Positions 8,651 through 61,711 of a stretch of DNA of 64,000 bases are shown here, in pieces. The DNA lies in the NCBI GenBank assembly GCA_964645245.1, contig CAZYBS010000001.1, forward strand, positions 526 to 64,525, written 5' to 3'. Position 1 is the first letter of the stretch. Each line of letters starts with the position of its first letter. Under the pieces are notes generated by a model. It saw only the letters and a program-made list of their open reading frames with translations. It made no database searches and had not been told where the DNA came from. The translations under genes were made by a program, and so were the position numbers. This stretch comes from an uncultured Candidatus Saccharibacteria bacterium. Lineage in GTDB: Bacteria; Patescibacteriota; Minisyncoccia; Phycocordibacterales; UBA9973.

Positions 8651-8880
8651 TTACTTCGCCATAGCGTTCATCAAAGCTTTTGTTTTCTTGCCGATCAGGC
8701 CGTCAGCTTTCAGGCCATTGTCCTTTTGCCATTGCTTGATAACAGCAATGGTCTTGGGACCGAGTTTGCCATCCAGGACTAGACCCAGATTCAAGACTTT
8801 GTTCAAGAATCTTTGCAGCTCCTTGACCGGTTCACCTTTGCTGCCGCTCTTCAGAGTGACGGTGCCGAAATTGTAGGGTG
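8651..8880 (-). repeat. peptidoglycan-binding-domain 3' cassette, copy 1 (end of giant gene)
   Basis: ~230 bp ~93% identical to 15744-15970. Confidence 0.8.
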
Positions 8881-15743: not shown

Positions 15744-15970
15744 CTACTTCGCCATCGCATTCATCAGAGCTTTTGTTTTCTTGCCGATCAGGCCATCAGC
15801 TTTCAGGCCATTGTCCTTTTGCCATTTCTTGATGACGGCAATGGTCTTGGGACCAAGTTTACCATCCAGGACTAGACCCAGATTCAAGACTTTGTTCAAG
15901 AATCTTTGCAGTTCCTTGACTGGTTCACCTTTACTGCCGCTCTTCAGAGTAGTGGTGCCGAAGTTGTAGG
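15744..15970 (-). repeat. peptidoglycan-binding-domain 3' cassette, copy 2
   Basis: ~230 bp ~93% identical to 8651-8880. Confidence 0.8.
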
Positions 15971-16547
15971 GACCGGCCGAAACTGGAGAGACAACACCGC
16001 TGACACACAGTGCGCCAGTTGAGGTATTGTATTTATTGCCTCCGGAACAGCCGGGAGAAACCGTCGTCATGGTAACTTCTGGAGAAATGGTCAAGGCGAC
16101 GGGTGTCGTACTCGTCGCTACGGTTGCAGTCGGTGAAGCTGAAGAGGAACCTCCCCCGCCGCCTCCGCCGGAAACTAATCCTCCGCTACCGCCGAAAGTA
16201 CAAGCGGTAGAAGTAGGCGTAAAGATTACCGTCGTTGCTCCGGTAACCAGAACCGAGTTCTGAGAAAGGTTACAAGACTGAGCCAGACCCAAGTTATTCG
16301 TCAAGGTATCTCTAAGCGGAGACACCAAGGTTAAGGTACTGGAAGCCGGCACCGTCACGGTCAGCGTCGTCGCGCCGACTTCTATTGTCGTGGCCGCTGA
16401 ATTAGCTGTAATCGTGTAGTCGCGGCTATTAACCGTGACTGTCGTATCAACGCTGAAAGTCAAGTCAGCCGCTTGCGCAACCGAAACGACTCCAACACAG
16501 AGAGACAAGACAGCTATTAACAAACCGATTTTTAATTTTTTAATCAT
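15744..16547 (-). CDS. secreted protein with the same C-terminal peptidoglycan-binding domain
   Basis: signal peptide MIKKLKIGLLIAVLSLCVGVVSVAQA; last ~70 aa ~93% identical at DNA level to the end of the giant gene. Confidence 0.6.
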   Translation of the reverse strand: MIKKLKIGLLIAVLSLCVGVVSVAQAADLTFSVDTTVTVNSRDYTITANSAATTIEVGATTLTVTVPASSTLTLVSPLRDTLTNNLGLAQSCNLSQNSVLVTGATTVIFTPTSTACTFGGSGGLVSGGGGGGGSSSASPTATVATSTTPVALTISPEVTMTTVSPGCSGGNKYNTSTGALCVSGVVSPVSAGPYNFGTTTLKSGSKGEPVKELQRFLNKVLNLGLVLDGKLGPKTIAVIKKWQKDNGLKADGLIGKKTKALMNAMAK

Positions 16548-16690: not shown

Positions 16691-18886
16691 TTATTTGTTG
16701 GTATAAACACTCCAAGTATTTGCAGCTGTGTTCACGAAAGTTAATTCAATATCTGTACCTGAAGCAACTGTTGCAGTTCCAATAATTGTCATACCTGAAG
16801 CTCCAGCAGTAATGGTCAAGGTTTGAGCACCACCGAGGTTAGCAAACACTACTCTGAATGTATCCCCAACTGCGACACCTGGAATAGCAGCAGAAAGAAG
16901 AGTACCAGTAGGGAAAGTAACCGTACCTGCCCCCGTAGCACTTGTTTGAGTTAGAACACCACCTAGAGTCTGAGCTGCTGTTGGAGTAGAGTTTTGAACT
17001 GTACCAAGTGCAGTAGTCGTCGTACTAAACAATGGAACTCTTAATGTGCCTCGTCCAAGGGAAATAAAACCATTAGCACCAGCCGTACCACCATTAGCAC
17101 CACCACCAGCACCTGGAACTAAGGTTACATTTCCACCAGCACCACCAGTACCAGAAGCACCACCTGACAAACCACCAGCACCTGCTGTTAAGCCCAATGC
17201 GCCACCAGCACCAGATGTACCAGCGTTAGTTGAGTTTGCTCCACCAGTACCTGTCGTAATTGATACAGCACCACCAGCACCTGAGCCATTAGTTGCACCC
17301 GTAGCAACACCACCATTTCCAACGGTAACAGTCAATGCGCCACCAGCGCCACCAACAGTAGCTGCAGCTGCAGTAGAACCAACACCTGTTGTAAGAGTAA
17401 TCGCACCACCGGCCGTGCCACCTGTAGAAGCAGTACCACCTGCGCCAGCAGTTATAGCAACAGCTCCACCAGCAGCTAGAGTACCAGCAGCACCTGCTTG
17501 GACTGTAACAGTACCTGGGGTATTTCCTAAGTTAGCAGTTCCAGATTGAACTGTTACATCACCAGAAGCACCACCAGTCGCAACACCTGATCTAAGAGAA
17601 ACCGCACCGGAAGCGCCGGAAGTTGTAGTACCAGAAAGGAAAGCAACAGTTCCGGAAGCGCCGGAAGTTGAACCACCAGCACCAGAAGTAAGAGCAACCG
17701 CGCCACCTGCGCCAGTTACACCACCTGCACCAGCAACACCAGTAACGGCACCACCAGCAGCAGCGACAGAACCAGCACCAGCTGTCAATGTAACAGCACC
17801 ACCAGCCGCACCAGTTGTGGCTGAGCCAACACCTGCAGCACCAGCAGTAAGAGTAATAGCACCAGCGGCACCGGATGTACCGGCACCAGAAGGAGCACCA
17901 GAAGCACCAGCAGTAAGCGAGTATGAACCACCAGCACCGGATGTACCAGTAGTAGTAGTGCCACCAGCGCCGAGAGTAACAGTAGAAGCACCACCGGCGC
18001 CACCTGTACCAGCACCAGAAGCATTACCTCCAGCGCCAGCTGTAAGGGTAGATGCGCCACCGGCGCCACCTGTACCCGTGACAGTAACGCCACCAGCACC
18101 AAGAGTTACGGTAGAAGCACCACCGGCACCACCAGTGTTACCTAATGTAGCCGCACTACCTGCACCCGAAGTTAAAGAGTAAGCACCACCTGCACCTGCA
18201 GAAGCGCCGGCAGTTGTGCCTGCAGCACCAGCAACAAGTGTAATTGCACCACCTGCACCTTGTCCGCCAGTTCCGCCAGCGCCAGCTGTAACAGTAACTG
18301 CGCCACCGGCGCCAGTTCCGGCACCGTTAGCACCCGCGGTAATTGCAACCGTACCCGGAGTGTTAGCGGCAGTCGTTGTACCTGAAGAGAGAGTTACCGC
18401 ACCAGAGACACCGGCTGTGGCATTACCAGAACCTAAAGCAACAGCACCCGAAGCACCGGAAGTAGTCGTGCCTGTAGCGACAGTCAATGCGCCTGAAGCG
18501 CCAGAAGTTGCGCCTCCAGCACCAGTAGTAACAGAAATAGCACCACCGGCACCAGTTGCGCCACCGGCACCAGCCGTCACTGCGCTAGCACCACCAGCCG
18601 CACTACCTTGACCTGCGCCAGCAATTAGAGAAGATGCGCCACCGGCAGAGTTGCCAGCCGTACCTGCACCGGAAGTTAACAAAATAGCACCACCAACACC
18701 CGTAGTTGAACCTCCAGCACCAGCTGTCACAGTGATAGCATCACCGGCTGCTGAAGCAGAACCTTGCGCGCTAGTAACACTTGTTGCGGCAACAGTCAGA
18801 GTTGCGCTAGCCTGACCCGCGCCGACAAATGCGACCAGAGCCAGAGACATCAAAATTAAACCTAAACCTTTAAATAATTTTTTCAT
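16691..18886 (-). CDS. Gly/Ala/Thr-rich highly repetitive secreted protein (putative surface fibril/adhesin)
   Basis: start set at MKKLFKGLGLILMSLALVAFVGAGQASA signal peptide; >600 aa of GAGGxTxGAxGAVTxT degenerate repeats; distinct beta-rich C-terminal domain. Confidence 0.55.
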   Translation of the reverse strand: MKKLFKGLGLILMSLALVAFVGAGQASATLTVAATSVTSAQGSASAAGDAITVTAGAGGSTTGVGGAILLTSGAGTAGNSAGGASSLIAGAGQGSAAGGASAVTAGAGGATGAGGAISVTTGAGGATSGASGALTVATGTTTSGASGAVALGSGNATAGVSGAVTLSSGTTTAANTPGTVAITAGANGAGTGAGGAVTVTAGAGGTGGQGAGGAITLVAGAAGTTAGASAGAGGAYSLTSGAGSAATLGNTGGAGGASTVTLGAGGVTVTGTGGAGGASTLTAGAGGNASGAGTGGAGGASTVTLGAGGTTTTGTSGAGGSYSLTAGASGAPSGAGTSGAAGAITLTAGAAGVGSATTGAAGGAVTLTAGAGSVAAAGGAVTGVAGAGGVTGAGGAVALTSGAGGSTSGASGTVAFLSGTTTSGASGAVSLRSGVATGGASGDVTVQSGTANLGNTPGTVTVQAGAAGTLAAGGAVAITAGAGGTASTGGTAGGAITLTTGVGSTAAAATVGGAGGALTVTVGNGGVATGATNGSGAGGAVSITTGTGGANSTNAGTSGAGGALGLTAGAGGLSGGASGTGGAGGNVTLVPGAGGGANGGTAGANGFISLGRGTLRVPLFSTTTTALGTVQNSTPTAAQTLGGVLTQTSATGAGTVTFPTGTLLSAAIPGVAVGDTFRVVFANLGGAQTLTITAGASGMTIIGTATVASGTDIELTFVNTAANTWSVYTNK

Positions 18887-23750: not shown

Positions 23751-24456
23751 GGTACCTACTCCAGCGTTTCTCTCCTGTCTTATTAAGGATACTGTCCTTG
23801 ACCATAGATACTAACTCTCTCTGTAATGTCTTTTCACTACAAGAAGAAATGAGTGACCCTGCCTCGCCGGCAGGCAGGCCTGAAGCTTTGGTTTTAATAT
23901 CCGTTATGGTAACACCACTAGGACTGGCTTTTATTACAGATATTATTAGATCTCGTCTTTGTTTTTTTACGGACAAAGCAAGAGTTCTATCGGACAAAGC
24001 TTTCATAAGAGTGCTCCCTTTTTGGACACCGATTCTAGTATGTCCTTTAGAATTTTCTCTCCCCCTGCTAAGGGGGAGTGCTCCGACCCGGGTCGGAGCG
24101 AGGGGGTCAGACCCCTCCTCATTCCTCCCCTTAGCAGGGGAGGAATTTTCTAAAAATTCTTCAAGCCATGTAGGTTTTATTTGCTTGGACTCACTTATGG
24201 ATTGATTGAGTTCTGTGAATTCTTTTCTGAGAATATTGCTATTCATTTCAGAAATGATATTAACGGCGGAAGCTATGTCCAAAAAGGACATGATCTCAGA
24301 TATTTTAGGTAAAGTATTTACCGGGGCAAAATGCATGTCCGATATAATATTAGTGCCTAATGTCCTTAACTTATTCCGAAGTGGCTCTTCTTTGTCCATA
24401 ATGTCTGTTACCATATAAAGCGCAGTAATAAGTTTATTGGTCTTGGTGTAAGACAT
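23737..24456 (-). CDS. hypothetical protein with C-terminal winged-helix-like segment
   Basis: start set at MSYTK (upstream ORF extension is a translated repeat half-copy); contains in-frame ~90-bp GC-palindrome insertion at 24056-24144. Confidence 0.4.
   Translation of the reverse strand: MSYTKTNKLITALYMVTDIMDKEEPLRNKLRTLGTNIISDMHFAPVNTLPKISEIMSFLDIASAVNIISEMNSNILRKEFTELNQSISESKQIKPTWLEEFLENSSPAKGRNEEGSDPLAPTRVGALPLSRGRENSKGHTRIGVQKGSTLMKALSDRTLALSVKKQRRDLIISVIKASPSGVTITDIKTKASGLPAGEAGSLISSCSEKTLQRELVSMVKDSILNKTGEKRWSRYQIRG
24056..24144. repeat. composite family-1 GC palindrome (nested hairpins) in-frame in 23737-24456 gene
   Basis: ctccccctgctaagggggag ... ctccgacccgggtcggag ... gagggggtcagacccctcctc ... 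cctccccttagcaggggagg. Confidence 0.75.
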
Positions 24457-26809: not shown

Positions 26810-27219
26810 ATCACAACGCAAAAAGAATATCACAAATAGCTGGCCTGTCTATTTTTTTTCTTCTGATTATTATTTACGCCTTTTTCCGCTCTCATGATTT
26901 AATTTTCGGAGTGAAAATAAAAAATGTAAATATAGTAGACGGGGCACCCGCCCGAACGACTGTTCAGTCGGGCGGGAAAGTTGCAAACAGTGTTCTCCAA
27001 GTGACAGGAAATGCGAGAAATGCGACAAACTTGACTTTAAACGGCCGGGAAATTTCAATAGACCAAGAAGGTAATTTCGACGAGACAATAGTTCTCCTGA
27101 TAGGATATAATATAATAAATATAACAGCCAAAGATAAATTTGGATATATTGATGAAAAAAATTATCAAATTATAAATAACGAGCGAAGTGAGTATATTTT
27201 ATTTGACCCTGTTAAATGA
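26806..27219 (+). CDS. hypothetical membrane-anchored protein
   Basis: 137 aa, start overlaps ftsK stop (ATGA), N-terminal TM; contains in-frame 30-bp family-2 palindrome. Confidence 0.4.
   Translation: MNHNAKRISQIAGLSIFFLLIIIYAFFRSHDLIFGVKIKNVNIVDGAPARTTVQSGGKVANSVLQVTGNARNATNLTLNGREISIDQEGNFDETIVLLIGYNIINITAKDKFGYIDEKNYQIINNERSEYILFDPVK
26947..26976. repeat. family-2 30-bp palindrome in-frame in ORF 26806-27219
   Basis: cccgcccgaacgactgttcagtcgggcggg (identical 30-mer). Confidence 0.85.
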
Positions 27220-28380: not shown

Positions 28381-28514
28381 AAACTCGTTGAAACATAACT
28401 TTTCGGAGGGGTTTTGAGCGCGACGGCGCGAAAACTTCAGGATTTTTTAAGCTTCAAAAAATCCGTACCGAAGAAAAGTTGTGTTGAGAAAGAGTTTCTG
28501 ATAATATAGCCCCT

Positions 28515-30792: not shown

Positions 30793-31650
30793 CTAAATTG
30801 TAAATACTCGCTGGGCATTTGCAATCAAAGCTTGCGCAACTTCGTCTTCCGGCAGATTTTTAATCTCGGCAGTTTTTTTGACGACTTCTTTTACATAAGA
30901 GGGTTCATTACGTTTGCCTCGGTGTGGTACAGGAGTGACATACGGAGAATCTGTCTCAGACATAATCATATCAAGCGGCGTATTTCTGATAACTTCATCG
31001 TAGTCCCGGGTAAATGTAATGACCCCGGTAAAAGAAAGAGTAAAACCAAAATCCAAAAAACTTTTTGCTTCCTCCCAAGTCCCGGCAAAAAAATGCACAT
31101 TGCCTTTAACTTGAGCATAAGTCTTTAGAATTTCTAGAGCATCACTATAAGCCCGCCCGAACGACTGTTCAGTCGGGCGGGCATTGCGAATATGAAGCAT
31201 CAAGGGTTTATTAAATTCATTGGCCAGTTCTATTTGCTGTATAAAAGCTTCTTTTTGTTTTAATATTGACTCTTCGGTGCAACGATAATAATCCAACCCG
31301 CACTCGCCTATTCCGACTATTTTTTCATTTGCTTTTTTGTCTTTTAAAAGTTCTCGGTAAGATTCTTTATCAAAAACTTCTCCGCGCGAGGTAAATTCTT
31401 TTCCGCCAACACCTAACTCCTTTTCATCGTGATACGACACTCCAGTATGTATCGGGTGCAGTCCGATAATCGCATACACGCCTTCTTTATACTGATTGGC
31501 CATTTTCACCGCTTTTCTTGAAGTATCCATTTGCGTACCGACATTTATCACCCAGGTATTATTTTCCAAGGCGCGCTTAATCACCTCATCTCTATCTTCA
31601 TCAAAGGCCTTAAAATTAACATGGCTATGTATATCTATGTATTTGGGCAT
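30793..31650 (-). CDS. tatD: TatD-family metal-dependent hydrolase/DNase
   Basis: N-terminal IDIHSHVNF, TIM-barrel metal ligands; in-frame family-2 palindrome insertion (NARPTEQSFGRAYS). Confidence 0.85.
   Translation of the reverse strand: MPKYIDIHSHVNFKAFDEDRDEVIKRALENNTWVINVGTQMDTSRKAVKMANQYKEGVYAIIGLHPIHTGVSYHDEKELGVGGKEFTSRGEVFDKESYRELLKDKKANEKIVGIGECGLDYYRCTEESILKQKEAFIQQIELANEFNKPLMLHIRNARPTEQSFGRAYSDALEILKTYAQVKGNVHFFAGTWEEAKSFLDFGFTLSFTGVITFTRDYDEVIRNTPLDMIMSETDSPYVTPVPHRGKRNEPSYVKEVVKKTAEIKNLPEDEVAQALIANAQRVFTI
31152..31181. repeat. family-2 30-bp palindrome in-frame in tatD
   Basis: cccgcccgaacgactgttcagtcgggcggg (identical 30-mer). Confidence 0.85.
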
Positions 31651-40775: not shown

Positions 40776-43700
40776 TTATTGTATCACAAAATTTTTCAAC
40801 TGCTCAATTACAGGGGCCACGGTTTTATCATTTATATCTTCCGGCCTGATTTTGCATTTTGAGAAAATCTGCTTTTCCATTTGCCTGACGGCATTTTCAA
40901 AGGCAATACGTTCGGGTGTATTGCCACCACGATGCTCGTAACGTTTTCTTAAGTCTAAAAATCTCTGTTCCAGGCTCACTACTCCGAAGGGAATTACGCG
41001 ATCGTCGCAGTATTCTACAATCTTTTTTCCATAATCAATGCCCAAGGCATTGCCTGGTGCGCCTAAAAAACTAATAGCTTTGATTAATTCTAAAACCTCA
41101 TCTGAAACTTGAAGTTCCTGTGCAATTTTCAGGCTAGCTGAATATTCATCATTGCCATACTTATTTACATATCCATCCTTCACTTTCTGCCAATATGATA
41201 AACCCTCCGGTTTCAAAAATTCAGGAAAAGAATCTAATTTAAACTTGAGAATATTCCCCATATCGTGGAGCAAGCATGCAGTAATAATTTCTTCTTTGTT
41301 TAAAGATTCATTAAAATTATCGCAAATCAATGATGCCACAGCCGCCACGCGGAGCATATGCTCCTGCAGACTAGGAATGATTTTATATTTTTTATATATT
41401 GTTTCAATACTCATGGCCATCTTATCGCCCGGAGCAAGTCCCATTTTCTTTCTCGTGTCTTGAAGCTCTCGCATAAAATCTCGATATTCCCCTTCAGCCC
41501 TAAGCTCTGGAGTGATTGTTGTATCCAGCCATACTTCTTCTGAAATATTTTTATCCTCCAAAATTCTTCCGACATTCAACTCCTCCTTCATGATCTCCAA
41601 AAATTCACCGCCCAACTTCAAACTTTTAACTTTTAACTCGCCAAGCGGTTGGCGAACTTTTATTCCGGTTTTTTGTCTGGCTTCGAGGCCTAGAGTCACA
41701 ATCTGCCTGACTGTTTCCATATTTTTCAAAACCTTATTCTTCTCTCCACTAAAAATGTCAAGGATACCCTTTAGCATTTTTGGCCACTCGCACAAATGCA
41801 CGCTCTCCTTGTCATCCTCATTTCTTAATTTCAGCCAAATATCCTCCGCCGCAAATGGAGCGAAGGGCGCGAGCAGTTTCGCCAGGTTTTTTAACACAAA
41901 ATATAAAGTTTGCTTTGCTTCTTTATCACCCTCTTTTATCCGTTCACGCGAGCGGCGCAAATACCAAGTGGAAAGGTCTCCTATAAAATCCCGCATAGCG
42001 CGCACCGGTTCAAGCAATTTATAATTGTCCAGATTCTTCGTCGTCATTTCCGTCAGCTCATCTAATCTGGCTAAAATCCAAACATCAAGAACATGTTTTG
42101 ATTTTGGTTTATCTCGACTTGCCCCGTACCGAGCTTGCTCTGGTATGGGGTAAAGCTCATAAAAGGCGAGCACGTTATAGAGTAACCCAAAGACCTGCTG
42201 GTGAAGCAAGGCTACAGTTCTTTCGTCAAAATTTTTAGACTCGCCGGGCTGATTCACCGAGTACATCCATAAGCGAAGCGTGTCCACGCCATACTTCCCT
42301 ATCATAACCCAAGGGTCAACAACGTTCCCCAGAGACTTAGACATTTTTTTGCCGGCGACATCCAAAAGGTGTCCTAGACAGGTTACATTTTTATAAGCCT
42401 TGCCTCGGCCCATTAGCACTCCCACAGCATGCAAGGTATAAAACCACCCGCGAGTCTGATCAACCGCCTCGCAGATAAAATCTGCTGGATATAGAATTTT
42501 TTTGGGGTCAAAAGGATAATGGTCTTGCGCAAATGGCATCGCGCCGGAATCAAACCAAACATCCATGACTTCTTTGGTACGTATTAAATTACCGCCACAA
42601 GAGCAGACAAGTGTAACCTTATCAATATACGGCCGGTGCAAATCAAGCTCATAATTTTCATTGTGCGGTAAGGGAATAAAATCAAACTCTTTAACTTCAG
42701 CATTCTGTAGGTAAATTAGAGGATTATTCTTAATTGACAACCCGCTAAATAACAAACCCTTTAGCACAAAACTTAATGCTCGAGTAGCTCCGTCATGGCC
42801 AACGATAAGAATATTTTTGTCAGAATATTTCTTTTCTAAATCATAAATAAAATCACCAATTCGTTTAACCACTTGAACAAAATTTTCTCCGTCGGATAAA
42901 ATTTCAAAAGGATCATTCAAATAATCTACATCATAGTATTTCCTAAATAAAGTTCGGTCTTTGCCTTCAAAAAATGAACTGGTCTCCCATTCTTGAACTC
43001 GTTCATCATAAATAACTTTTTCTAACGGAAAACCAATTTGTTCACAAGTTATTTTAGCGGTCTGTTTTGCCCGATTAAGTGGTGAAGAAATAATGACGTC
43101 AATTTTTCTGGCCAATTTTTGAGCACTTTCTAATACTTGTCTTTCTCCATTTTTTGTCAAATTCGCTTTATGTTCAGAATCTTGATGATGGAAATTATTT
43201 ACATTATTGTCAGCCTCTCCATGCCGCATCACAAAATATTTATTGCCGGATTTTTCGGTTTTTTCTCTTAAGCCGGCAATGCTGCCTATAACCTCAACCT
43301 TCTTGCAGGATTCGCAAACCCACACCGGCAGGGGCGTGCCCCAATACCGCTCACGGGATATTGCCCAGTCTTTTATTTCGCGAAGCCACTCGCCAAAACG
43401 CCCGTCCCGAATATGCGACGGCTCCCAATTAATTTCCCTATTTTCTTTTATCATCTGCTCTTTTATTCCTGGATTTGACATTTTGATATACCAAGAATCG
43501 CGGGCATAATAGATAAGTGGGGTTTGGCAACGCCAGCAATGTGGATATGAGTGCTGATAATTTTCTTTACTGAAGAATAAATTTTTGTCCGCTAGATATT
43601 TTATAATATCCAAATCTAAAGTGGGCTTGCCCGGCTCGCCATCTTTACTGATGTCTTTTTCTTTTACAAGCCTTCCTTCCAAAAATCCCGTGCCTTTTAT

Positions 43701-44768
43701 AAATTTGCCTTCAAGGTTTACCAAGTGATGCTTGGGCAGTCCCAGCTTTGTTCCCAATACAAAATCATCCTGCCCGTACATTACAGCAGTGTGCACAATT
43801 CCCGTACCTTCTTCTGTATTCACAAAATCTGCCGCATATACTTTGTAAGCTTTTTCCAGCTTAGACTTTTCACTTTCAGATATTGTGTCGGCAAGACACG
43901 GGAAAAGCGGCTCGTATTCCAAGCCAATCAAATCTTTGCCTTTCACCTCCTCTAAAATTTCATAGCCTTCGGTCAGTATTGAAACTCTTTCTTTGGCTAA
44001 AATTAATATTTCATTTCTAACTTTTACTTTTATATAAATAATATCTTCTTCCACCGCCAGTGCCACATTGCCAGGAAGAGTCCACGGAGTAGTGGTCCAT
44101 GCCAAAATGTAAGTATTCTCTTGCCCTTTTACTTTAAATTTAACTGTTACAGACAGATCCTTGTCGTCTTCGTATCCTTGTGCGAGCTCGTGCGAGGAAA
44201 GTACTGTACCACACCTTGGACACCATGGCACAACTTTATAATCTTTGTAGAGTAAATCCTGCTCATTTATTTTTTTGACCACATTCCAAAGAGATTCAAT
44301 ATAATCATTGTGATATGTCACATATGGGTTCTCCTGGTCCAGCCAATACCCGATACGCTTGGTAAATTTATTCCATACATCCAGATATTCCCAAACGCTT
44401 TCCTTGCATTTTTGATTAAACTTGGCAATGCTATATTCTTCAATCGCTTTTTTAGAATTCAATCCCAGCTTCTGTTCTGTTTGAATTTCTACCGCCAATC
44501 CATGCGTATCCCACCCGCCCTTGCGACGAACGTGATAGCCACACATTGTCTTGTATCGAGGAATTGCATCCTTAAATGCTCGCGCTTCCAGGTGATGAAT
44601 CCCCGGCTCACCATTGGCGGTCGGTGGACCTTCATAGAAAATAAATTCTTTTTTGCCTTCCGTTTGCCCCAAAGATTTTTCAAAAATTTTATTTTTCTGC
44701 CAAAATTCCAAAACAGCTTCTTCGCGGAAAGCGGCGTCAGATTTTTCATTTGTTCCCTTTTCAGCCAT
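40776..44768 (-). CDS. ileS: isoleucyl-tRNA synthetase (type 2) with internal histidine-phosphatase-like insertion and C-terminal HD-domain fusion
   Basis: PPTANGEPGIHHLEAR HIGH-like region, CP1 editing domain, KMSKSLGN; 1330 aa; RHGE...VGHDG module at aa ~508-700; LLHDMGN HD motif in last ~200 aa. Confidence 0.9.
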   Translation of the reverse strand: MAEKGTNEKSDAAFREEAVLEFWQKNKIFEKSLGQTEGKKEFIFYEGPPTANGEPGIHHLEARAFKDAIPRYKTMCGYHVRRKGGWDTHGLAVEIQTEQKLGLNSKKAIEEYSIAKFNQKCKESVWEYLDVWNKFTKRIGYWLDQENPYVTYHNDYIESLWNVVKKINEQDLLYKDYKVVPWCPRCGTVLSSHELAQGYEDDKDLSVTVKFKVKGQENTYILAWTTTPWTLPGNVALAVEEDIIYIKVKVRNEILILAKERVSILTEGYEILEEVKGKDLIGLEYEPLFPCLADTISESEKSKLEKAYKVYAADFVNTEEGTGIVHTAVMYGQDDFVLGTKLGLPKHHLVNLEGKFIKGTGFLEGRLVKEKDISKDGEPGKPTLDLDIIKYLADKNLFFSKENYQHSYPHCWRCQTPLIYYARDSWYIKMSNPGIKEQMIKENREINWEPSHIRDGRFGEWLREIKDWAISRERYWGTPLPVWVCESCKKVEVIGSIAGLREKTEKSGNKYFVMRHGEADNNVNNFHHQDSEHKANLTKNGERQVLESAQKLARKIDVIISSPLNRAKQTAKITCEQIGFPLEKVIYDERVQEWETSSFFEGKDRTLFRKYYDVDYLNDPFEILSDGENFVQVVKRIGDFIYDLEKKYSDKNILIVGHDGATRALSFVLKGLLFSGLSIKNNPLIYLQNAEVKEFDFIPLPHNENYELDLHRPYIDKVTLVCSCGGNLIRTKEVMDVWFDSGAMPFAQDHYPFDPKKILYPADFICEAVDQTRGWFYTLHAVGVLMGRGKAYKNVTCLGHLLDVAGKKMSKSLGNVVDPWVMIGKYGVDTLRLWMYSVNQPGESKNFDERTVALLHQQVFGLLYNVLAFYELYPIPEQARYGASRDKPKSKHVLDVWILARLDELTEMTTKNLDNYKLLEPVRAMRDFIGDLSTWYLRRSRERIKEGDKEAKQTLYFVLKNLAKLLAPFAPFAAEDIWLKLRNEDDKESVHLCEWPKMLKGILDIFSGEKNKVLKNMETVRQIVTLGLEARQKTGIKVRQPLGELKVKSLKLGGEFLEIMKEELNVGRILEDKNISEEVWLDTTITPELRAEGEYRDFMRELQDTRKKMGLAPGDKMAMSIETIYKKYKIIPSLQEHMLRVAAVASLICDNFNESLNKEEIITACLLHDMGNILKFKLDSFPEFLKPEGLSYWQKVKDGYVNKYGNDEYSASLKIAQELQVSDEVLELIKAISFLGAPGNALGIDYGKKIVEYCDDRVIPFGVVSLEQRFLDLRKRYEHRGGNTPERIAFENAVRQMEKQIFSKCKIRPEDINDKTVAPVIEQLKNFVIQ

Positions 44769-49893: not shown

Positions 49894-50508
49894 ATGAAAT
49901 TTGAAGAAATGAAATTTAATATTAGCGAGCTGAAAGGTATCTCCGCTAAAAATATAGAAGAGCATTTGAAACTCTACGCCGGTTATGTAAAAAATACCAA
50001 TCTAATCGTTGAAAAAATAGGTGAATATATGGCTGACTCGGAGAAGAATGCTTATGTCATCGGAGAACTACAAAGAAGATTCGGCTTTGAGTTTAATGGT
50101 ATACGCAACCATGAATATTATTTCAAATCTCTAGAGGACGGGGCAAGACCGCTACCAGTAAATTCGAAATTGAGAAAGGCTATAGAAAAATTTACCCCGT
50201 CAACGGCGGGGCAAGCACCGTCTTTTGATTTATGGCTCTCCGGCTTCAAGTTACTCGCAATGACTCGTGGAATCGGCTGGGCAGTACTTGGCTATGACAA
50301 ACAGACACAACAATTTGTACATATCTGGATAGACGAGCAGCATCTGGGACAGTTAAACGGAGTTGATTGGATTTTAGGAATTGATATGTGGGAACACGCT
50401 TATGTTTATGATTATCCAACTTCAGAAAAGAAAAAATATGTGGAAGCATTTTTTGAAAATCTCAATTGGGAAGTAATAGAAGAAAACTTTATAAAAGCAG
50501 AGCGTTAA
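49894..50508 (+). CDS. sodA: Fe/Mn superoxide dismutase
   Basis: C-terminal GIDMWEHAYV...NLNWEVIEENF matches the SOD DxWEHAYY metal-ligand region; start set at MKFEEMKF. Confidence 0.8.
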   Translation: MKFEEMKFNISELKGISAKNIEEHLKLYAGYVKNTNLIVEKIGEYMADSEKNAYVIGELQRRFGFEFNGIRNHEYYFKSLEDGARPLPVNSKLRKAIEKFTPSTAGQAPSFDLWLSGFKLLAMTRGIGWAVLGYDKQTQQFVHIWIDEQHLGQLNGVDWILGIDMWEHAYVYDYPTSEKKKYVEAFFENLNWEVIEENFIKAER

Positions 50509-50565
50509 GGAAAAATATAAAAATTTTCTTGCGGGCAATACAGTAGCCTCCCGCTACTAAAACTT

Positions 50566-52026
50566 TTATATTTCCCCTTCTAGTTTAAAAAAGCTTTTTA
50601 TGCTCCTGCCGAAAAGTCTATAAATAAAATATAAATAGACTAAAAGTGTCAAAAAAAGTGGAAAATCCGGAATGGATAACGAGGCAAATGGAATATTTGC
50701 GAAAAAACTAACGACTCCCAGCTCATAATGCAGCAGCAGATATGAAATATGGCCTAATGGTACAGCTAGTACATACCAAATAATTCCTAGAAAACTAGTC
50801 AGAAATCCCAGAAGCATTGTAAATGGAATAAAGGGAAGTATTAAAACATTTGCCGGCAATGCCACCAGTGACAAATTGCCCATTTTGTAAAGAATAAAAG
50901 GTAGGACAAAAATATATACTGCGCAAGTGACTGATATAATATCTCGCAACTTAAATTTGATGGTAACCCACCAGAAATATTTTTCAATTTTGGGCGCAAA
51001 GAAAATTATGGCAACAGTAGCAATAAAGGAAAGCTGAAAGGACACATCATAAACGAGAACAAACGGATTTAATAAAATCATAACAATACCAGCCAGGAGA
51101 AGTGCCCGCGCGACATCATAGTTTCGCCCAGTCGCGCGGGCCACAAGTACTAAAGTTGCCATTATTCCCGCTCTAAGTGCGGTAGAGCTTGCGCCGGTCA
51201 TTATGATAAATAAAAAGATTGCGAACATCCCCATTCCAATACCAAGATTCTTAGGAAGAAAGGCAAACAATTTCATAAACCATTCGGCAACTATTGTAAT
51301 GTTGTATCCGGACAAAGCGACAATATGTATCGTACCTGTGTCTATGAAACTTTTTCTTAAATCTTCACTAAACGCTGCCTTTTCGCCCAAGATGAGCCCA
51401 CCCATCAGCAAATTCTCTGGACTCCTGATGGCAAAATTAACTTTCTCTAAAAACTTACCTTTAATAGAAAATAAAAAACTTTTGATTTTATTGCCATTGC
51501 CTCGCGATACAATCTCAATGCTTGGATAATTCATCACATAAAAAACTCCGTCTTTCCTCAAGTAATTGACATAATCAAATTCTTTGCCCTGGTCGGTAAT
51601 AAAATTCTTCGGTTTCTCCAGTTTTCCTGAAAAACTAATCTCATCGCCATATCTATAATTATTTTCAGCATCGGTGGTAATTAAAATTTTGGTTTCTTTG
51701 GTTTGAATAATTAACTTTTGATTGTTCTCTCTTATGTCCGGTTCATCAACTATTTCACCAAACATTGAAATGGTCCGCAGTGCCGGCTTATCGGCAACAT
51801 GAAACCTGAAAATCCCTAGGCAAAATGCCAAAATAAAAATCGTCGATATTATATCCCAACGATACTTTAGTGAACTAAAGTTCTTTAGCAGACTAAAGTA
51901 AAGAATTAAGGCCCCAGTTAAGAGTAGGACCAGTAAAACTAAATACAAATTTACAAAAACAAAAGAGCGCAACAGCACCCCGAGAGCAAAACCGAAACAA
52001 GACAAATAAAAAATTCTATCTCGCAT
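50566..52026 (-). CDS. comEC: competence protein ComEC/Rec2, integral membrane DNA-channel domain only
   Basis: 486 aa, many TM helices, typical ComEC competence-domain segments (LRAGIMATLVLVARATGRNYDVARALLLAGIVMIL). Confidence 0.75.
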   Translation of the reverse strand: MRDRIFYLSCFGFALGVLLRSFVFVNLYLVLLVLLLTGALILYFSLLKNFSSLKYRWDIISTIFILAFCLGIFRFHVADKPALRTISMFGEIVDEPDIRENNQKLIIQTKETKILITTDAENNYRYGDEISFSGKLEKPKNFITDQGKEFDYVNYLRKDGVFYVMNYPSIEIVSRGNGNKIKSFLFSIKGKFLEKVNFAIRSPENLLMGGLILGEKAAFSEDLRKSFIDTGTIHIVALSGYNITIVAEWFMKLFAFLPKNLGIGMGMFAIFLFIIMTGASSTALRAGIMATLVLVARATGRNYDVARALLLAGIVMILLNPFVLVYDVSFQLSFIATVAIIFFAPKIEKYFWWVTIKFKLRDIISVTCAVYIFVLPFILYKMGNLSLVALPANVLILPFIPFTMLLGFLTSFLGIIWYVLAVPLGHISYLLLHYELGVVSFFANIPFASLSIPDFPLFLTLLVYLYFIYRLFGRSIKSFFKLEGEI

Positions 52027-52506: not shown

Positions 52507-54231
52507 TTAAGAAATATCAACTACTCTTAATCTTAACTCTTCTTTGCCTCTAAATCTAGACAAATCAAAGGTGGCTAAAAGATCAACGTTCTTATCTTCA
52601 GTCAGGGGTATTTTAAAAGAATCGTGATTAGAAAAAAAAGAAATTGCTTTGGCTTTATGTTTATCGGCATCAGAAAAAATAATTTCTAAATGTTCGCCGG
52701 AGCCATTTTTGCCGAACTTTTTAATATTTTCTATTTTCACATTTTCAAAAAGAAAAATTGGTTTTGGATTGCCAAGACCAAAAGGCGCGAGTTTTTCCAT
52801 TTCACGCCAATTTTTCATATTTACATCAACTAAAGAAAGTTTTGCATCAAAACCGACCCCCTCCCCCCTCCCCCTTGTCAAGGGGGAGGTGCTGGAAGCA
52901 GAGGGGGTAATTTTCGCGTAAGAGATAGATAAGGCTTCTTCTAAGAAATGAATTTTCTCATTATGAACTGTGAATCCTCCAGCCAGTTCGTGCCCGCCGA
53001 AATCCAGGAAATATTCTCGGTTTTCTGTCATCAGCTCCACCACCGATACTGACCCATCACTCCGGCAAGAGCCTTTGATACAATCATTTTCGTCTTTTCC
53101 CCAGACAAAAACAGGTTTTTTGTACTGATCCGAAATTTTCCCAGCCACCAGACCCAATATTCCTACACGCCAATTGGGATTACCCATTACGATAACATCT
53201 CTGTGTTCACGCAAAGGACTCATGCTAAACTTTTTATTTACTTCGCGCATAATACCGGTTACAATAGTTTTTCTCTCATCATTGATTTTGGATAAATAGT
53301 CTGCCAAGACTCCGCCCCTGGCCTCATCATCCGTTGCTAGAAGCTCAAAAGCCCGCAGTGGGTCATCCATGCGGGAAGCGGCATTAAGGCGAGGAGTAAC
53401 CATAAAGCATATATCATCCTCCGACAAATATCTTTGGTCAATATTCATTTTGGCTAAAAGCTTTTGCAAACCCGGGCGAGGAGATTTTCTCAACACTTTC
53501 ATTCCAAAATACGAGATAGCTCTATTTTCTCCTGTTAGCGGAACCATGTCAGAAAGCGTGGCCAAGCCTGCCATATCCAGCATCCACTTCTCAGAGCCCA
53601 TTTTGATTTTAAAATATTCGCCATACTTTTTTACAAAAGCTTGCGCGAACTTAAAAACCACCCCTGCGCCACAGAGCCCGCCCGAATCGCTACGCGAAGC
53701 GTTGCGGGCGGGCATTTTCCCCGGATAACCATCCACTTTTGGGTTCAGAATAGCGTAAGCCCGCGGCAAAATTTCGGGTGGAATATGATGGTCGGTAATT
53801 ATTACATCAATGCCATCTACCTCGGCTTGAGCCACCTCCGCCACGGCCGTAATACCAAGATCAATGGTTATCAAAAGTTTTACTCCTTTTTCGCTAAATT
53901 GTTTTATCGCATCAAGATTGAGCCCGTATCCTTCAGAATTTCTTTGAGGTATATAAATTTCATAATTTTTGTAATTTATTTTTTTTAACAAATCCTGTAA
54001 AATCACCGCTCCCGGAATTCCATCGCAATCATAATCCGCGTAAATGACTATTTTTTCTTTATTCTCTATTGCTTCAAAAAGCCGGACACAAGCCTTCTCC
54101 ATATCTTTCATTAAAAATGGGTCATGCAAATCTCTTTCGTAATTTGGATTAAGAAAAGTCTCCGCTTGTGTTTCGTCAGTAATTCCCCTCTTTTCTAAAA
54201 GTGTCCTTAGTAATTCGCCGTACTTTTGCAT
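52507..54231 (-). CDS. recJ: single-stranded-DNA-specific exonuclease RecJ
   Basis: DHH motifs (ADYDCDGI, ITDHH), DHHA1 domain; start set at MQKYGELL because the upstream ORF extension translates a repeat hairpin; in-frame family-1 insertion at 52855-52908. Confidence 0.85.
   Translation of the reverse strand: MQKYGELLRTLLEKRGITDETQAETFLNPNYERDLHDPFLMKDMEKACVRLFEAIENKEKIVIYADYDCDGIPGAVILQDLLKKINYKNYEIYIPQRNSEGYGLNLDAIKQFSEKGVKLLITIDLGITAVAEVAQAEVDGIDVIITDHHIPPEILPRAYAILNPKVDGYPGKMPARNASRSDSGGLCGAGVVFKFAQAFVKKYGEYFKIKMGSEKWMLDMAGLATLSDMVPLTGENRAISYFGMKVLRKSPRPGLQKLLAKMNIDQRYLSEDDICFMVTPRLNAASRMDDPLRAFELLATDDEARGGVLADYLSKINDERKTIVTGIMREVNKKFSMSPLREHRDVIVMGNPNWRVGILGLVAGKISDQYKKPVFVWGKDENDCIKGSCRSDGSVSVVELMTENREYFLDFGGHELAGGFTVHNEKIHFLEEALSISYAKITPSASSTSPLTRGRGEGVGFDAKLSLVDVNMKNWREMEKLAPFGLGNPKPIFLFENVKIENIKKFGKNGSGEHLEIIFSDADKHKAKAISFFSNHDSFKIPLTEDKNVDLLATFDLSRFRGKEELRLRVVDIS
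52855..52908. repeat. family-1 GC palindrome in-frame in recJ
   Basis: ctcccccttgtcaagggggag plus flanking C/G runs; encodes TSPLTRGRGEGVG. Confidence 0.75.
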
Positions 54232-54260
54232 AAATGGAATTTTAGCATATAATAGAGTAA

Positions 54261-54322
54261 ATAGAACAAATTTTTTGAAGGCGACGTTGCGAAGCAGGAG
54301 TCTGAAAAAACTTTGTTCTATG
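54261..54322. other. hairpin element, copy 1: 16-bp stem enclosing a conserved 30-nt loop (candidate RNA motif or protein-binding cruciform)
   Basis: atagaacaaatttttt-gaaggcgacgttgcgaagcaggagtctg-aaaaaactttgttctat. Confidence 0.5.
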
Positions 54323-54685
54323 AAACAATTTATGGAAAACTGTATTTTCTGCAAAATTATAAAAAAAGAAATACCTTGTACGAAAGTTTACGAGGATGAA
54401 AACTTTTTGGCTTTTTTGGATATAAACCCAATGGGTCCGGGACACACTCAGGTAATACCGAAAAAGCATTACAGATGGGTCTGGGATGTTCCAAATGCTG
54501 GAGAATTTTTTGAAGTTGCTAAGAAAATAGCCTTGGCTCAAAAAAAAGCATTTAATGCGGATATCGTGCGTTCCCAGGTTTACGGTGAAGAAATATCTCA
54601 TGCCCACATCTGGGTCTGGCCGGAAGTTGCCGGCGATGAAAAAGATTTGGTCGGGAATGCGAAAAAAATTATTTCAGCATTTTAA
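54320..54685 (+). CDS. HIT-family nucleotide hydrolase
   Basis: histidine triad ISHAHIWVWP, N-terminal CIFCKII. Confidence 0.8.
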   Translation: MKQFMENCIFCKIIKKEIPCTKVYEDENFLAFLDINPMGPGHTQVIPKKHYRWVWDVPNAGEFFEVAKKIALAQKKAFNADIVRSQVYGEEISHAHIWVWPEVAGDEKDLVGNAKKIISAF

Positions 54686-54690
54686 AGTAA

Positions 54691-55944
54691 TTACTTCAAT
54701 ATCAACGGTGTAAGCGCCGGAAGCTCTTTGCCGGCTAAAAATTCTAAGGTAGCGCCGGCAGCGAGGCTCACGTGTGAATAATCATCTAAATTTCCATACC
54801 GGCGCGCTATAATGGTAGTGTCTCCTCCAGCAAGGATAGTTTGTCCCCCCAGATTTTTGCTGAGTTCTTTCATGGCAGTAAGTATCGCTTCTCCACCATT
54901 TGCAAACTTTTCATCTTCAAACTTTCCCATCGGACCGGCCAGAAAAACAGTTTTAGATTGCGCAATTATGTCCATAAAATTTTTGACTGTTTTAGGCCCA
55001 ATATCAAGCGCTGCCCATTGGTCTGGCACCCCTTCGGAAAAAATATTGATAATTTTTGTTGAAACTCCGTCAGAAATCACCACATCTTCTGGATACACAA
55101 TTTTATCTTTATATTTTTGCAATATTTCTTTCGCATACAAAACCCAGTCTTTCTTTTCACGTTTCTTTTCATCTACAAAGACGTCTTCAATGAAAGAATC
55201 CCCAAGTGCTCTGCCTTGCGCTTTCAGAAAAACACTCGCCACGGCGCCACCCACCAGGACTGTGTCGGCTATTTTTAATAAACTATTTACCGCGTCTACT
55301 TTGTCAGAAATTTTTGCCCCGCCAATAATAACAGTGAAGGGATGTCTCGGACTCTCCAGCAAAGTAGATAACATTTCAACTTCACTCTTCAAATAAAGGC
55401 CGGCCACGGCCTCCAGATGCCGTTCAATGCCGGTCGTGGAAGCATGAATTCTATGGGCTTGAGGAAAACCATCAAAAACAATCAGGTCTTTCCCGCGGCA
55501 GAGCTTTTGCGCGAAAATATCATCATCAATCATTTCTTCGCTATAAAACCGTACATTTTCAAGCATCAGGATATCTCCCGGCTGCATTTTAGCAACTCTG
55601 TCATCAACCTCTTTACCGATACAGTCGTCTACTTTCAGAACCAGATGATGCAAAAGCAGGGAAAGTCTTTGCGCATGAGGCGTGGTGCGAAGTTGTTCCA
55701 CGACATGACCGTCAGGACGCCCGACGTAAGTCAGAATAACGATTTTACAATTTTCTTTCAGGAGATATTGAAGCGTCGGAAGCGTTGCTTTTATGCGCAT
55801 ATCGTCAACAAGCTCCCAAACGCCATTTACTTCCCCGCCCGAACGACTGTTCAGTCGGGCGGGTTTCACATCAATATCATAAGGAGCGCGGTAAAGAATA
55901 GTTTTCTCTTTTAAGTCTATATTTTGTAATGTTTTAAGTTTCAT
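54691..55944 (-). CDS. pgk: phosphoglycerate kinase
   Basis: full-length PGK with conserved N- and C-domain motifs; in-frame family-2 insertion near N-terminus (KPARLNSRSGGE). Confidence 0.95.
   Translation of the reverse strand: MKLKTLQNIDLKEKTILYRAPYDIDVKPARLNSRSGGEVNGVWELVDDMRIKATLPTLQYLLKENCKIVILTYVGRPDGHVVEQLRTTPHAQRLSLLLHHLVLKVDDCIGKEVDDRVAKMQPGDILMLENVRFYSEEMIDDDIFAQKLCRGKDLIVFDGFPQAHRIHASTTGIERHLEAVAGLYLKSEVEMLSTLLESPRHPFTVIIGGAKISDKVDAVNSLLKIADTVLVGGAVASVFLKAQGRALGDSFIEDVFVDEKKREKKDWVLYAKEILQKYKDKIVYPEDVVISDGVSTKIINIFSEGVPDQWAALDIGPKTVKNFMDIIAQSKTVFLAGPMGKFEDEKFANGGEAILTAMKELSKNLGGQTILAGGDTTIIARRYGNLDDYSHVSLAAGATLEFLAGKELPALTPLILK
55834..55863. repeat. family-2 30-bp palindrome in-frame in pgk
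   Basis: cccgcccgaacgactgttcagtcgggcggg (identical 30-mer). Confidence 0.85.
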
Positions 55945-55963
55945 CTGTGTTTTTATAAAAATA

Positions 55964-56025
55964 GCAGGATAAAGTTTTTGAATGGCGACGTTGCGAAGCA
56001 GGAGTCTGAAAAAACTTTATCCTGC
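55964..56025. other. hairpin element, copy 2: different stem sequence, same loop
   Basis: gcaggataaagttttt-gaatggcgacgttgcgaagcaggagtctg-aaaaactttatcctgc; compensatory stem changes relative to copy 1. Confidence 0.5.
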
Positions 56026-56790
56026 TATATTTTCCGCTATTTTAATAATTTCCACGAATTTTTTCGCATCCAGGCTGGCGCGGCCGGGTAATAATCCATC
56101 GACACCCCCATTTTCCAAAAAATCCTCCGCATCTTTTTCATTGGCCGAACCGCCATAAATAACTCTGACTTTGGATGCTTCCAAGCCAAATTTATCAGAA
56201 AGAATTTTACGAATAAAGATAGCCATTTCCAGAGAATCAGCCGGAGTGGCATCTCGGCGATTAAGAGTACTGGAAATCGCCCAAATTGGCTCATAGGCGA
56301 TAATAATTTTTGAAATTGAATTTTTAGAAATCCCATTTAAGCATTCTCCAAGCTGAACTTTGACTAAGTTAAAATAACTGTGATTCTCATCACGCACATT
56401 TTCCCCGACGCAGACTATTGGTCTCAATCCGGCCGAAAGCGATGCCCTGATTTTTTTATTCACCTCGTTATTACTCTCTCCTAAGGCACGCCTCTCGGAG
56501 TGGCCCAAGATTACATATCTGGTGCCAATATTGTAGAGCATCTCTCCTGAAACTTCACCTGTAAAAGCACCCACCTCTCCCCAAAAAGCATCCTGCGCGC
56601 CCAAAGATATTTTTCTAGAGAATTTCTTTAACTTTTCCAAATAAATAAACGGGGGGCAAATTACGACTTCAGTTTTTCTTGCAGTTTTTTTAATACCAGA
56701 AATATACTTTGCCACATCACTAAACAATTTCTCCGCGTCTTTCAGAGATATGGGATTCATTTTCCAGTTGCCGATGATAATTTTCTTCAT
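56017..56790 (-). CDS. tpiA: triosephosphate isomerase
   Basis: KKIIIGNWKMN..., catalytic region AYEPIWAISS; start set at MKKIIIGNWK. Confidence 0.9.
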   Translation of the reverse strand: MKKIIIGNWKMNPISLKDAEKLFSDVAKYISGIKKTARKTEVVICPPFIYLEKLKKFSRKISLGAQDAFWGEVGAFTGEVSGEMLYNIGTRYVILGHSERRALGESNNEVNKKIRASLSAGLRPIVCVGENVRDENHSYFNLVKVQLGECLNGISKNSISKIIIAYEPIWAISSTLNRRDATPADSLEMAIFIRKILSDKFGLEASKVRVIYGGSANEKDAEDFLENGGVDGLLPGRASLDAKKFVEIIKIAENIAG

Positions 56791-61626: not shown

Positions 61627-61711
61627 CTTTGTTTTTATGAAGGTATACAAATTTTTATAAATAAAATCCCTTGCATTATTTATAAAAATTTGTATACCTG
61701 AATTGAATAAA

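Follow-up and report, generated by a model that had tools for sequence, protein, structure and literature searches.

Two hairpins with the same core, core A, lie in a 64-kb stretch of DNA from an uncultured Candidatus Saccharibacteria bacterium (contig CAZYBS010000001.1; the whole stretch is called the window below), one between recJ and a HIT-family gene and the other between tpiA and pgk, which raises the question whether they regulate these genes or belong to something else. The evidence favours, at a probability of roughly 0.7, that both are copies of a miniature non-autonomous hairpin insertion element, dispersed in Paceibacteria/Parcubacteria, and not a regulator of recJ and pgk. Core A resembles an insertion element because it is dispersed, is present or absent at orthologous sites and occurs in frame in open reading frames (ORFs). 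The count of two core-A copies and the Pfam search for mobility enzymes given below refer to the window.

Structure of the two hairpins

The 25-mer core GGCGACGTTGCGAAGCAGGAGTCTG was found exactly twice in the window, both times on the + strand, at an expectation of 0 (100 shuffles), in agreement with an earlier sequence-only reading of this DNA, which had described two hairpins in the same orientation. Their parts are as follows.

54261..54321, + strand: core-A hairpin copy 1 (sequence, pair counts; fold −21.1 kcal/mol, z −3.9; covariance-model match 72.6 bits)
54261-54276 and 54306-54321, + strand: 5′ arm and 3′ arm of the copy 1 stem (sequence)
54277-54279 and 54303-54305, + strand: copy 1 junctions, GAA and TGA (sequence)
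54280-54282 with 54300-54302, + strand: copy 1 inner helix P2, GGC with GTC
54283-84 and 54298-99, + strand: copy 1 tandem GA
54285-54297, + strand: copy 1 apical mini-hairpin CGTTGCGAAGCAG
55961..56028, + strand: core-A hairpin copy 2 (sequence; fold −31.9 kcal/mol, z −8.1; covariance-model match 76 bits)
55961-55979 and 56010-56028, + strand: 5′ arm and 3′ arm of the copy 2 stem
55980-55983 and 56007-56009, + strand: copy 2 junctions, GAAT and TGA
55984-55986 with 56004-56006, + strand: copy 2 inner helix P2, GGC with GTC
55987-88 and 56002-03, + strand: copy 2 tandem GA
55989-56001, + strand: copy 2 apical mini-hairpin

Both hairpins fold far more stably than shuffled sequence. The 16-bp stems described earlier apply to copy 1, with one T.C mismatch (54271/54311), whereas copy 2 is longer, extending over 55961-56028 with 19 bp and no mismatch (ATAGCAGGATAAAGTTTTT/AAAAACTTTATCCTGCTAT). 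The 5′ junctions differ by a single base (GAA-GG in copy 1, GAATGG in copy 2). The stems had been taken to differ in sequence between the copies, which is correct for the middle only: this part is exchanged with compensation (AAC/GTT in copy 1 versus CAGGAT/ATCCTG in copy 2), whereas the ATAG start, the CTAT end and the loop-adjacent AAA(G/T)TTTTT are common to both, so that the two stems are related.

Covariation and strand of the fold

Across 14 copies of core A (two from the window, the others introduced below), 97.1% of cells pair, compared with 48–58% when the partners are slid, and double changes occur at 14 of 22 pairs; the observed values were attained in 0 of 500 shuffles. Conservation of secondary structure, as proposed from the two window copies, is thereby borne out, since stems and inner helix covary beyond the controls. 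The element measures 60–80 nt and consists of an AT-rich stem of 16–24 bp whose end is a T-run/A-run, of a junction conserved as GAAYGG ... CCKGA, and of an apex, which is composed of the 3–5 bp helix P2, GA dinucleotides on both sides (tandem G.A pairs) and a UGC-GAA-GCA mini-hairpin. P2 was found as GGC/GUC, GUU/GAC, GUC/GAU and GGUC/GAUCC; it covaries at 3 of 3 modelled pairs, and a G.U occupies its middle position in 8 of the 14 copies. The outer stem is the most variable part, and the inner T-run, the junction and the apex are conserved.

A census of wobble pairs on the GAATGG strand of long stems (19 copies of core A and a sister core, core B) gave 18 G.T versus 5 A.C (p = 0.011; 23 informative pairs, which are not fully independent). 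Since a G.U pair turns into an A.C mismatch on the other strand, the fold belongs to the GAAUGG strand, that is, the + strand of the window. The sequence-only reading had instead considered a function on the minus-strand transcripts or at the DNA level; on the minus strand, a cis-acting structured RNA in the recJ 5′ untranslated region and in the tpiA–pgk leader of pgk would regulate both genes. Both copies do lie just upstream of minus-strand start codons, the minus strand folds too (−13.2 kcal/mol for copy 1 and −27.5 kcal/mol for copy 2), and the hairpin is retained at tpiA–pgk in two relatives (L099 and L121). However, the + strand folds better by 4–8 kcal/mol, and the minus-strand proposal is unsupported because the wobble pairs and P2 place the fold on the opposite strand. 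Together with the positions of further copies, the empty junctions and the flipped cores reported below, this leaves a minus-strand leader scarcely credible.

A strand-specific fold, tandem G.A pairs and a covarying P2 are typical of RNA motifs, and would also suit a host-beneficial RNA module on the GAAUGG strand (a protein-binding hairpin, a stabiliser or terminator, or an antisense RNA) that is copied around the genome and selected by the host. This explanation is considered quite unlikely, for reasons of context given with the individual copies.

Copies in other genomes

Metagenome contigs were scanned with the central 18-mer of the core, followed by searches by synteny and with a covariance model. 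The 18-mer scan returned 117 loci, most of them chance matches in GC-rich DNA, and 10 loci with the full hairpin, i.e. the same apex on long AT-rich stems whose sequences differ widely. A further 4 copies (L121, L123 and two in L125) came from synteny and the covariance model, and each of them matches the 18-mer at 17 of 18 positions; two of these four single changes fall within the GAA triloop, giving AAA and GUA. In total, 14 distinct core-A copies were obtained, 12 of them beyond the window and from other genomes. Both a search with the loop alone and the building and scanning of a covariance model had been suggested in the sequence-only reading; the scan with the central 18-mer recovered full hairpins with different stems, and the covariance model, together with synteny, copies that the 18-mer had not picked. 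A 20-mer scan of the GTDB genome collection gave a single chance match, without hairpin, in a Rhizobiaceae metagenome-assembled genome, and no copies were found in the viral contigs scanned. At the protein level, a chimeric 119-aa query for the peptides of in-frame copies returned no candidates, and a 35-aa peptide from the window, compared with 1.84 billion representatives, returned one false positive (the repetitive protein P0121).

Even where the TpiA proteins of two genomes are no more than 72% identical, their cores hardly differ, which is a point in favour of a host-selected RNA module. A perfect inverted repeat with a conserved centre might alternatively be a cruciform or hairpin site at the DNA level, to which a host protein binds during replication, recombination or DNA uptake or in organising the nucleoid. 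Within the centre lies GCGAAGC, an unusually stable DNA mini-hairpin, and G.T wobbles are tolerated in single-stranded DNA (ssDNA) as well. Such a site is nevertheless very unlikely: its density is low (2 copies in 64 kb), the loop bases of the apex vary (GAA, AAA, GUA), no tie to a specific type of locus is seen, and the hairpin is missing at orthologous sites of close relatives and interchangeable with unrelated cores (see below).

Copies within open reading frames

Half of the core-A copies (7/14) lie in frame within ORFs. These, and two extragenic copies of note, are:

L006: in-frame copy in mnmA
L003: in-frame copy in tsaC (Sua5/YrdC family), the Pfam domain being split in two stretches
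L063: in-frame copy in a class-V aminotransferase / cysteine desulfurase gene
L026, L123 and L125: in-frame copies in uvrA
L125: in-frame copy in uvrC
L024: extragenic copy directly after the ftsZ stop, followed by a T-run
L112 group: extragenic copy 12 nt before the start codon of a thioredoxin-like gene, same strand

Among the peptides encoded by the embedded copies are FSQTPASQRRHFKK and, from a different frame, FSQDLLLRNVDHSEK; the Pfam domains continue on both sides of the palindrome. The copies are apparently translated as inserts of 21–26 aa, a reading based on the frame being kept and stops being absent in 7 of 7 copies, where about one third would keep the frame by chance. An intron or a translational-bypass element was rejected, as freedom from stops and an intact frame would be unneeded in a sequence that is skipped.

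In all 7 cases the GAAUGG strand is antisense to the gene. All three frames of the reverse complement of the element are open, whereas the GAATGG strand has one open frame and TGA in two of three. The antisense orientation is thus a consequence of stop codons and says nothing on mechanism; as evidence on mechanism it was rejected, since three versus one open frames give 7/7 with a probability of about 0.13.

The sequence-only reading had named in advance, as an outcome that would speak against a dedicated regulator, a mini-repeat tolerated by proteins and scattered inside ORFs, and this is what the motif proved to be in mnmA, tsaC, the cysteine desulfurase gene, uvrA and uvrC. Copies within unrelated ORFs, behind ftsZ and ahead of a thioredoxin-like gene are likewise at odds with a minus-strand leader of recJ and pgk. 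For the host RNA module, the copies after ftsZ with its T-run and 12 nt before a same-strand start are favourable, but the structured strand of the ORF copies would require antisense transcription, and the contexts as a whole (5′ or 3′ of a gene, or antisense) are inconsistent.

Filled and empty orthologous sites

At the tpiA–pgk junction, the following features were defined in the window.

54691-55944, − strand: pgk (Pfam)
55945..55960, − strand: spacer TTTTATAAAAACACAG from copy 2 to the pgk ATG (comparison of the window, L121, L099 and the empty L119/L120)
56017-56019, − strand: tpiA stop TAA, inside the copy 2 3′ arm
56017..56028, − strand: last three tpiA codons and stop, ATA GCA GGA TAA = I A G stop, encoded by the copy 2 3′ arm (translation)

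In L119 and L120, whose TpiA is 85% identical to that of the window, this site is empty: TAA and ATG adjoin (...TCAAAATAA|ATGAAACTT) and TpiA ends in ...AENLSK. The core-A hairpin is present at tpiA–pgk in the window, in L121 (TpiA 84%) and in L099 (72%), and in these three a decayed native tpiA end (TTATAAAAA..., AAAATAA) is seen downstream of the element, which indicates that the hairpin probably landed in the last tpiA codons. It supplied a new C-terminus and stop to TpiA, IAG or VAK in place of LSK. The spacer at 55945..55960 probably represents what remains, in decayed form, of the native tpiA 3′ end after its displacement (the native form in L119 being TTATCAAAATAA), as judged from the comparison of these genomes. 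The absence of the motif from the junction of so close a relative counts against the recJ/pgk-leader reading, for which synteny had been proposed as a check.

At UvrA residue ~289, 89 of 120 homologs lack an insert and 31 carry one (homologs of 82–89% identity). The empty DNA is seen in L126 (GLVTFKIS|EEEFI); at filled sites both arms and the core are extra, about 78 nt, and the insert amounts to 26 aa. In uvrC, three genomes (L125, L026 and L123) have a filled site and two (L124 and L126) an empty one. Insertion polymorphism among related genomes was therefore found at tpiA–pgk, UvrA-289 and UvrC; varying presence among close relatives also tells against a module kept by the host. The tpiA arm had suggested that the stems might be native flanks copied in inverted form; this idea was weakened because both arms are extra at UvrA-289 and the native tpiA relics lie downstream.

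Exchange of cores at the same sites

Several orthologous sites carry a different core in some genomes; these cores, B, C and D, define sister families that are built on the plan of core A and occupy the sites it does. At the tpiA site, L122 has the arms of the window (GCAGGATAAAGTTTTT) but the apex of core B (GGTCTGGCYGGG...CCCRGAGAACCGAGGACC), flipped and within a GAATGG...CCTGA frame. In the HIT–recJ spacer, core A of the window corresponds to a flipped core B in L119 and L120, with compensatory divergence of the arms. A flipped, different core at both orthologous sites does not fit a minus-strand leader, and the substitution of unrelated cores at the same sites does not fit a host-selected module either. 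Across the homologs, the inserts at UvrA-289 encode core A, read in two frames, and core B, in either orientation; other inserts at this position include peptides of GC-rich palindromes. At UvrA-155, orthologous arms (GATTTCGAGAAG...) occur in four genomes, with core D in three and core C in one, and an empty form (L128) and an ‘arms-only’ remnant (L127) were also seen. Cores A, B and C have the common frame T-run-GAAYGG...CCKGA-A-run. In core B, a helix of its own covaries (CCGGG/CCCGG versus CUGGG/CCCAG). Rfam gave no match at the loci carrying cores B and C, only sub-threshold hits at chance level.

It is possible, if doubtful, that the mobile unit is smaller than the hairpin, namely structured apices of 25–45 nt (cores A–D) that act as cassettes, home to the tips of AT-rich hairpins or palindromes, where they insert between a T-run and an A-run, and swap in situ in either orientation. 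This would explain site-specific, orthologous stems with differing cores (tpiA 3′ end, HIT–recJ spacer, UvrA-155, UvrA-289), as well as the common frame and the preservation of the fold on one strand, and, if true, would mean an undescribed mobility or conversion mechanism targeting hairpin apices in bacteria of the candidate phyla radiation (CPR).

Replication template switching together with ectopic conversion is the main rival to a mechanism in which the apex is recognised. It requires no mobility machinery: quasipalindrome correction would make, lengthen and perfect the palindromes, the covariation would be mutational and not selected, and spread or apex exchange would take place by ectopic template switching or recombination at microhomology in the T-run and junction. 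The stems are near perfect, differ between sites and often extend a few bases into the native flank; the ‘arms-only’ remnant of L127 resembles an apex deletion between arm repeats; cores are exchanged within site-specific stems; and recA, recO, recJ and comEC are all encoded in the window. Template switching leaves unexplained, however, the near-invariance of the unpaired or non-Watson–Crick parts of the apex and the accumulation of wobbles on one strand, and some exchanged cores (C versus D) have microhomology only in T/A runs of 4–6 nt. This explanation is deemed unlikely.

Separately, the antisense strand of core B was found to be identical over 13–15 nt to tRNA-Lys(UUU), variable loop and 5′ T-stem (TAAGGTCCTCGGTTC). 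The match could be a trace of origin or pure chance. The sequences compared were:

L119, 8359-8442: core B locus matching tRNA-Lys
L122, 5754-5845: core B locus matching tRNA-Lys
L124, 1383-1481: core B locus matching tRNA-Lys
L128, 14630-14722: core B locus matching tRNA-Lys
L126, 7550-7623: tRNA-Lys(UUU)

Comparison with known RNA motifs and repeats

Rfam scans of the window returned nothing at gathering threshold, a further point against a host RNA module; the matches from E-value scans were sub-threshold and at chance level, the long hairpin mostly attracting models of microRNA precursors. Hammerhead, twister and hairpin ribozymes, k-turn, loop E and domain IV of signal recognition particle (SRP) RNA were dropped, as the Rfam scans were null and no SRP RNA was reported; the k-turn was also ruled out by its unfit bulge geometry. 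A tRNA origin was dropped as well, as ARAGORN called no element and only core B has the short tRNA-Lys match. An intrinsic terminator was rejected: the scan called neither copy, the stems are AT-rich, the loops measure 29–30 nt, and a U-run follows only some copies.

In literature searches, no description of such elements in CPR/Patescibacteria was found. [quoted passage not shown] According to PMC10969869, RPEs (Ogata et al. 2000) are small palindromes, often in frame in unrelated housekeeping genes. As described there, they resemble core A in forming several families, in residing in a reduced genome, in being read through as an extra peptide and in having no known transposase (PMC10969869). 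RPEs are, in that account, about 100–150 bp and conserved over their full length, whereas core A has 60–80 nt, a conserved apex and a stem that varies with compensation. Core A further differs from RPEs in placing different apices in the same stem and site, in lacking a sequence relationship and in its host phylum.

MITEs, Correia/NEMIS, ERIC and BOX elements are, like core A, short, non-coding, hairpin-forming and dispersed, with presence/absence polymorphism (PMC10969869), and some such repeats are modular, e.g. BOX A-B-C (PMC10969869). MITEs, however, have conserved terminal inverted repeats that match a parent insertion sequence (IS), and target-site duplications (PMC10969869); the termini of core A are its least conserved part, conserved terminal inverted repeats were absent among its copies, and neither a target-site duplication nor, in the window, a parent IS was found. 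Apparent ends such as ATAG...CTAT and ACGT...ACGT are indistinguishable from an extension of the stem because they are palindromic.

Repetitive extragenic palindromes (REPs) and REPINs, with the IS200/IS605-like Y1 transposase RAYT, resemble core A in having hairpins presumed to act as ssDNA and kept by compensatory changes, and in the strand-specific recognition expected of them (PMC3116915). REPINs have conserved REPs at the hairpin ends and a variable middle, and are extragenic and RAYT-linked (PMC3116915); the arrangement of core A is the opposite, and no RAYT (Y1 HUH) gene was present among the window ORFs scanned or in the fragments examined. Core A thus fails the formal definitions of MITE and REP: its termini are least conserved, no target duplication is definable and no transposase was found in the window.

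A similar arrangement may exist in Nostoc, where the small dispersed repeats SDR4-6 (Elhai et al. 2008, cited in PMC5861425 and PMC3116915) are reportedly putatively mobile units of <30 nt, and SDR5 is said to insert at the HIP1 palindrome. Such insertion would put a conserved unit between inverted flanks, much as in core A; phylum and sequences differ.

Weighing and proposed mechanism

Several observations weigh against an insertion element. Stems at the same site are alike while their cores differ, which a simple model of transposition of the whole hairpin does not predict. The flanks of the 14 copies contain no common direct repeat or conserved flanking motif, and no Pfam domain of a transposase, integrase or reverse transcriptase was found in the 46 window ORFs scanned, out of 52 of at least 110 aa. 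Core-A density is low, with only two copies in 64 kb; conservation of the core is partly built in because 10 of the 14 copies were chosen by the exact 18-mer; the informative wobble pairs are partly dependent; and near-perfect stems are also attainable by template switching without selection.

For the insertion element favoured here, the fold is probably kept for the element's own propagation, as argued for REPINs (PMC3116915). The single-stranded GAAUGG strand, as ssDNA or RNA, would fold into the hairpin, with the conserved apex as the putative recognition target of a trans-acting enzyme, so that the stem would need only to pair. Copy 2 would have been inserted into the last tpiA codons, giving I-A-G-stop and moving pgk 60-odd nt away. 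Effects on the expression of neighbouring genes are possible, and would then be a by-product and not the cause of conservation.

Conserved apex, covarying stem and swappable apices are together unlike classical MITEs and REPs, and the arrangement points to a route, probably single-strand and hairpin-based, by which DNA is moved or converted. Although the tiny genomes of CPR/Patescibacteria are regarded as streamlined, conserved housekeeping proteins in them carry palindrome-encoded inserts of 20–30 aa from several families, and the inserts in UvrA, UvrC, MnmA, TsaC, TpiA and Pgk differ between close relatives. Palindromic inserts of this kind affect gene annotation, protein modelling and alignment-based phylogeny in these lineages; in the window, TpiA owes its changed C-terminus and stop to copy 2, whose 19-bp hairpin also split a tight tpiA–pgk junction. 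Such elements can also pass RNA covariation tests without being host RNAs, and thus become false positives in motif searches.

Gene context in the window

Pfam confirmed recJ, the HIT gene, pgk and tpiA around the hairpins, and the coordinates agree with the earlier placement of copy 1 between the divergent recJ and HIT starts and of copy 2 in the tpiA–pgk spacer, over the tpiA stop. At copy 1, the features are:

54229..54231, − strand: recJ ATG, 29 nt from the foot of copy 1 (Pfam)
54320..54322, + strand: ATG of the HIT-family gene, its A and T being the last two paired bases of the copy 1 3′ arm
54225..54253, + strand: promoter-like site TTTGCA-17-TATAAT, immediately upstream of copy 1 (consensus scan, 10/12 matches; consensus match only)

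The recJ–HIT spacer comprises 88 nt and is mostly occupied by copy 1. If the candidate promoter is used, copy 1 would form the HIT mRNA's 5′ leader, read in the orientation that folds better and with the ATG at the stem foot, which would be in keeping with a host RNA module. Of the window ORFs of at least 110 aa, 46/52 are encoded on the minus strand. TpiA of the window is 100% identical to that of Parcubacteria group bacterium Gr01-1014_24, which assigns the DNA to this source, whereas its Pgk had no exact match on record.

Other repeats and features of the window

A 30-nt GC-rich palindrome, CCCGCCCGAACGACTGTTCAGTCGGGCGGG, is present in three exact copies (26947-26976, 31152-31181 and 55834-55863). 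One of them, at 55834, sits within the pgk reading frame and accounts for 11 aa (KPARLNSRSGG) missing from the Pgk of L119 and L121. These palindromes form a second family of inserts that proteins tolerate, unrelated to core A. Mini-palindromes of the CTCCCCCTnnnnAGGGGGAG and GCCCGCCCGAA... types, some of them in ORFs, were seen at 24057, 25093, 28224, 34848, 52867 (recJ) and 53673-53716 (recJ), and peptides of like style (SPLLRGE, PSLVKEGVGGGNSKK, NPEGKSTSYGAGKN) are insertion-polymorphic at several sites of UvrA homologs.

A further conserved core of ~68 nt (...GAGCGCGACGGCGCGAAAACTTCAGGATTTTTTAAGCTTCAAAAAATCCGTACC...) within AT-rich inverted arms is intergenic in four genomes, twice directly after rpsT. 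Rfam gave no match to it at gathering threshold, and either a further structured element or a true RNA gene is conceivable. Its loci are:

Window, 28392-28485: between recA and efp
L112, 170-278
L123, 9067-9173
L128, 11921-12031

Two other hairpins with long AT stems have no core in common with families A–D, one at 50507-50579, whose 21-bp arms enclose a GC-rich loop of 31 nt, overlapping the comEC 3′ end, and one at 61641-61699, with a 24-bp stem, between genes resembling those of a type II secretion system. A 227-nt direct repeat (93% identical; 8652-8878 and 15745-15971) links the ends of neighbouring minus-strand ORFs of 2287 aa and 267 aa, and dense degenerate repeats of 9–63 nt (GCACCACCAGC-like) fill 17065-18750 within a 731-aa ORF without Pfam match. 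In the isoleucyl-tRNA synthetase (40779-44768, − strand; 1330 aa), residues 512-672 are an inserted histidine-phosphatase (His_Phos_1) domain, and an HD domain lies close to the C-terminus.

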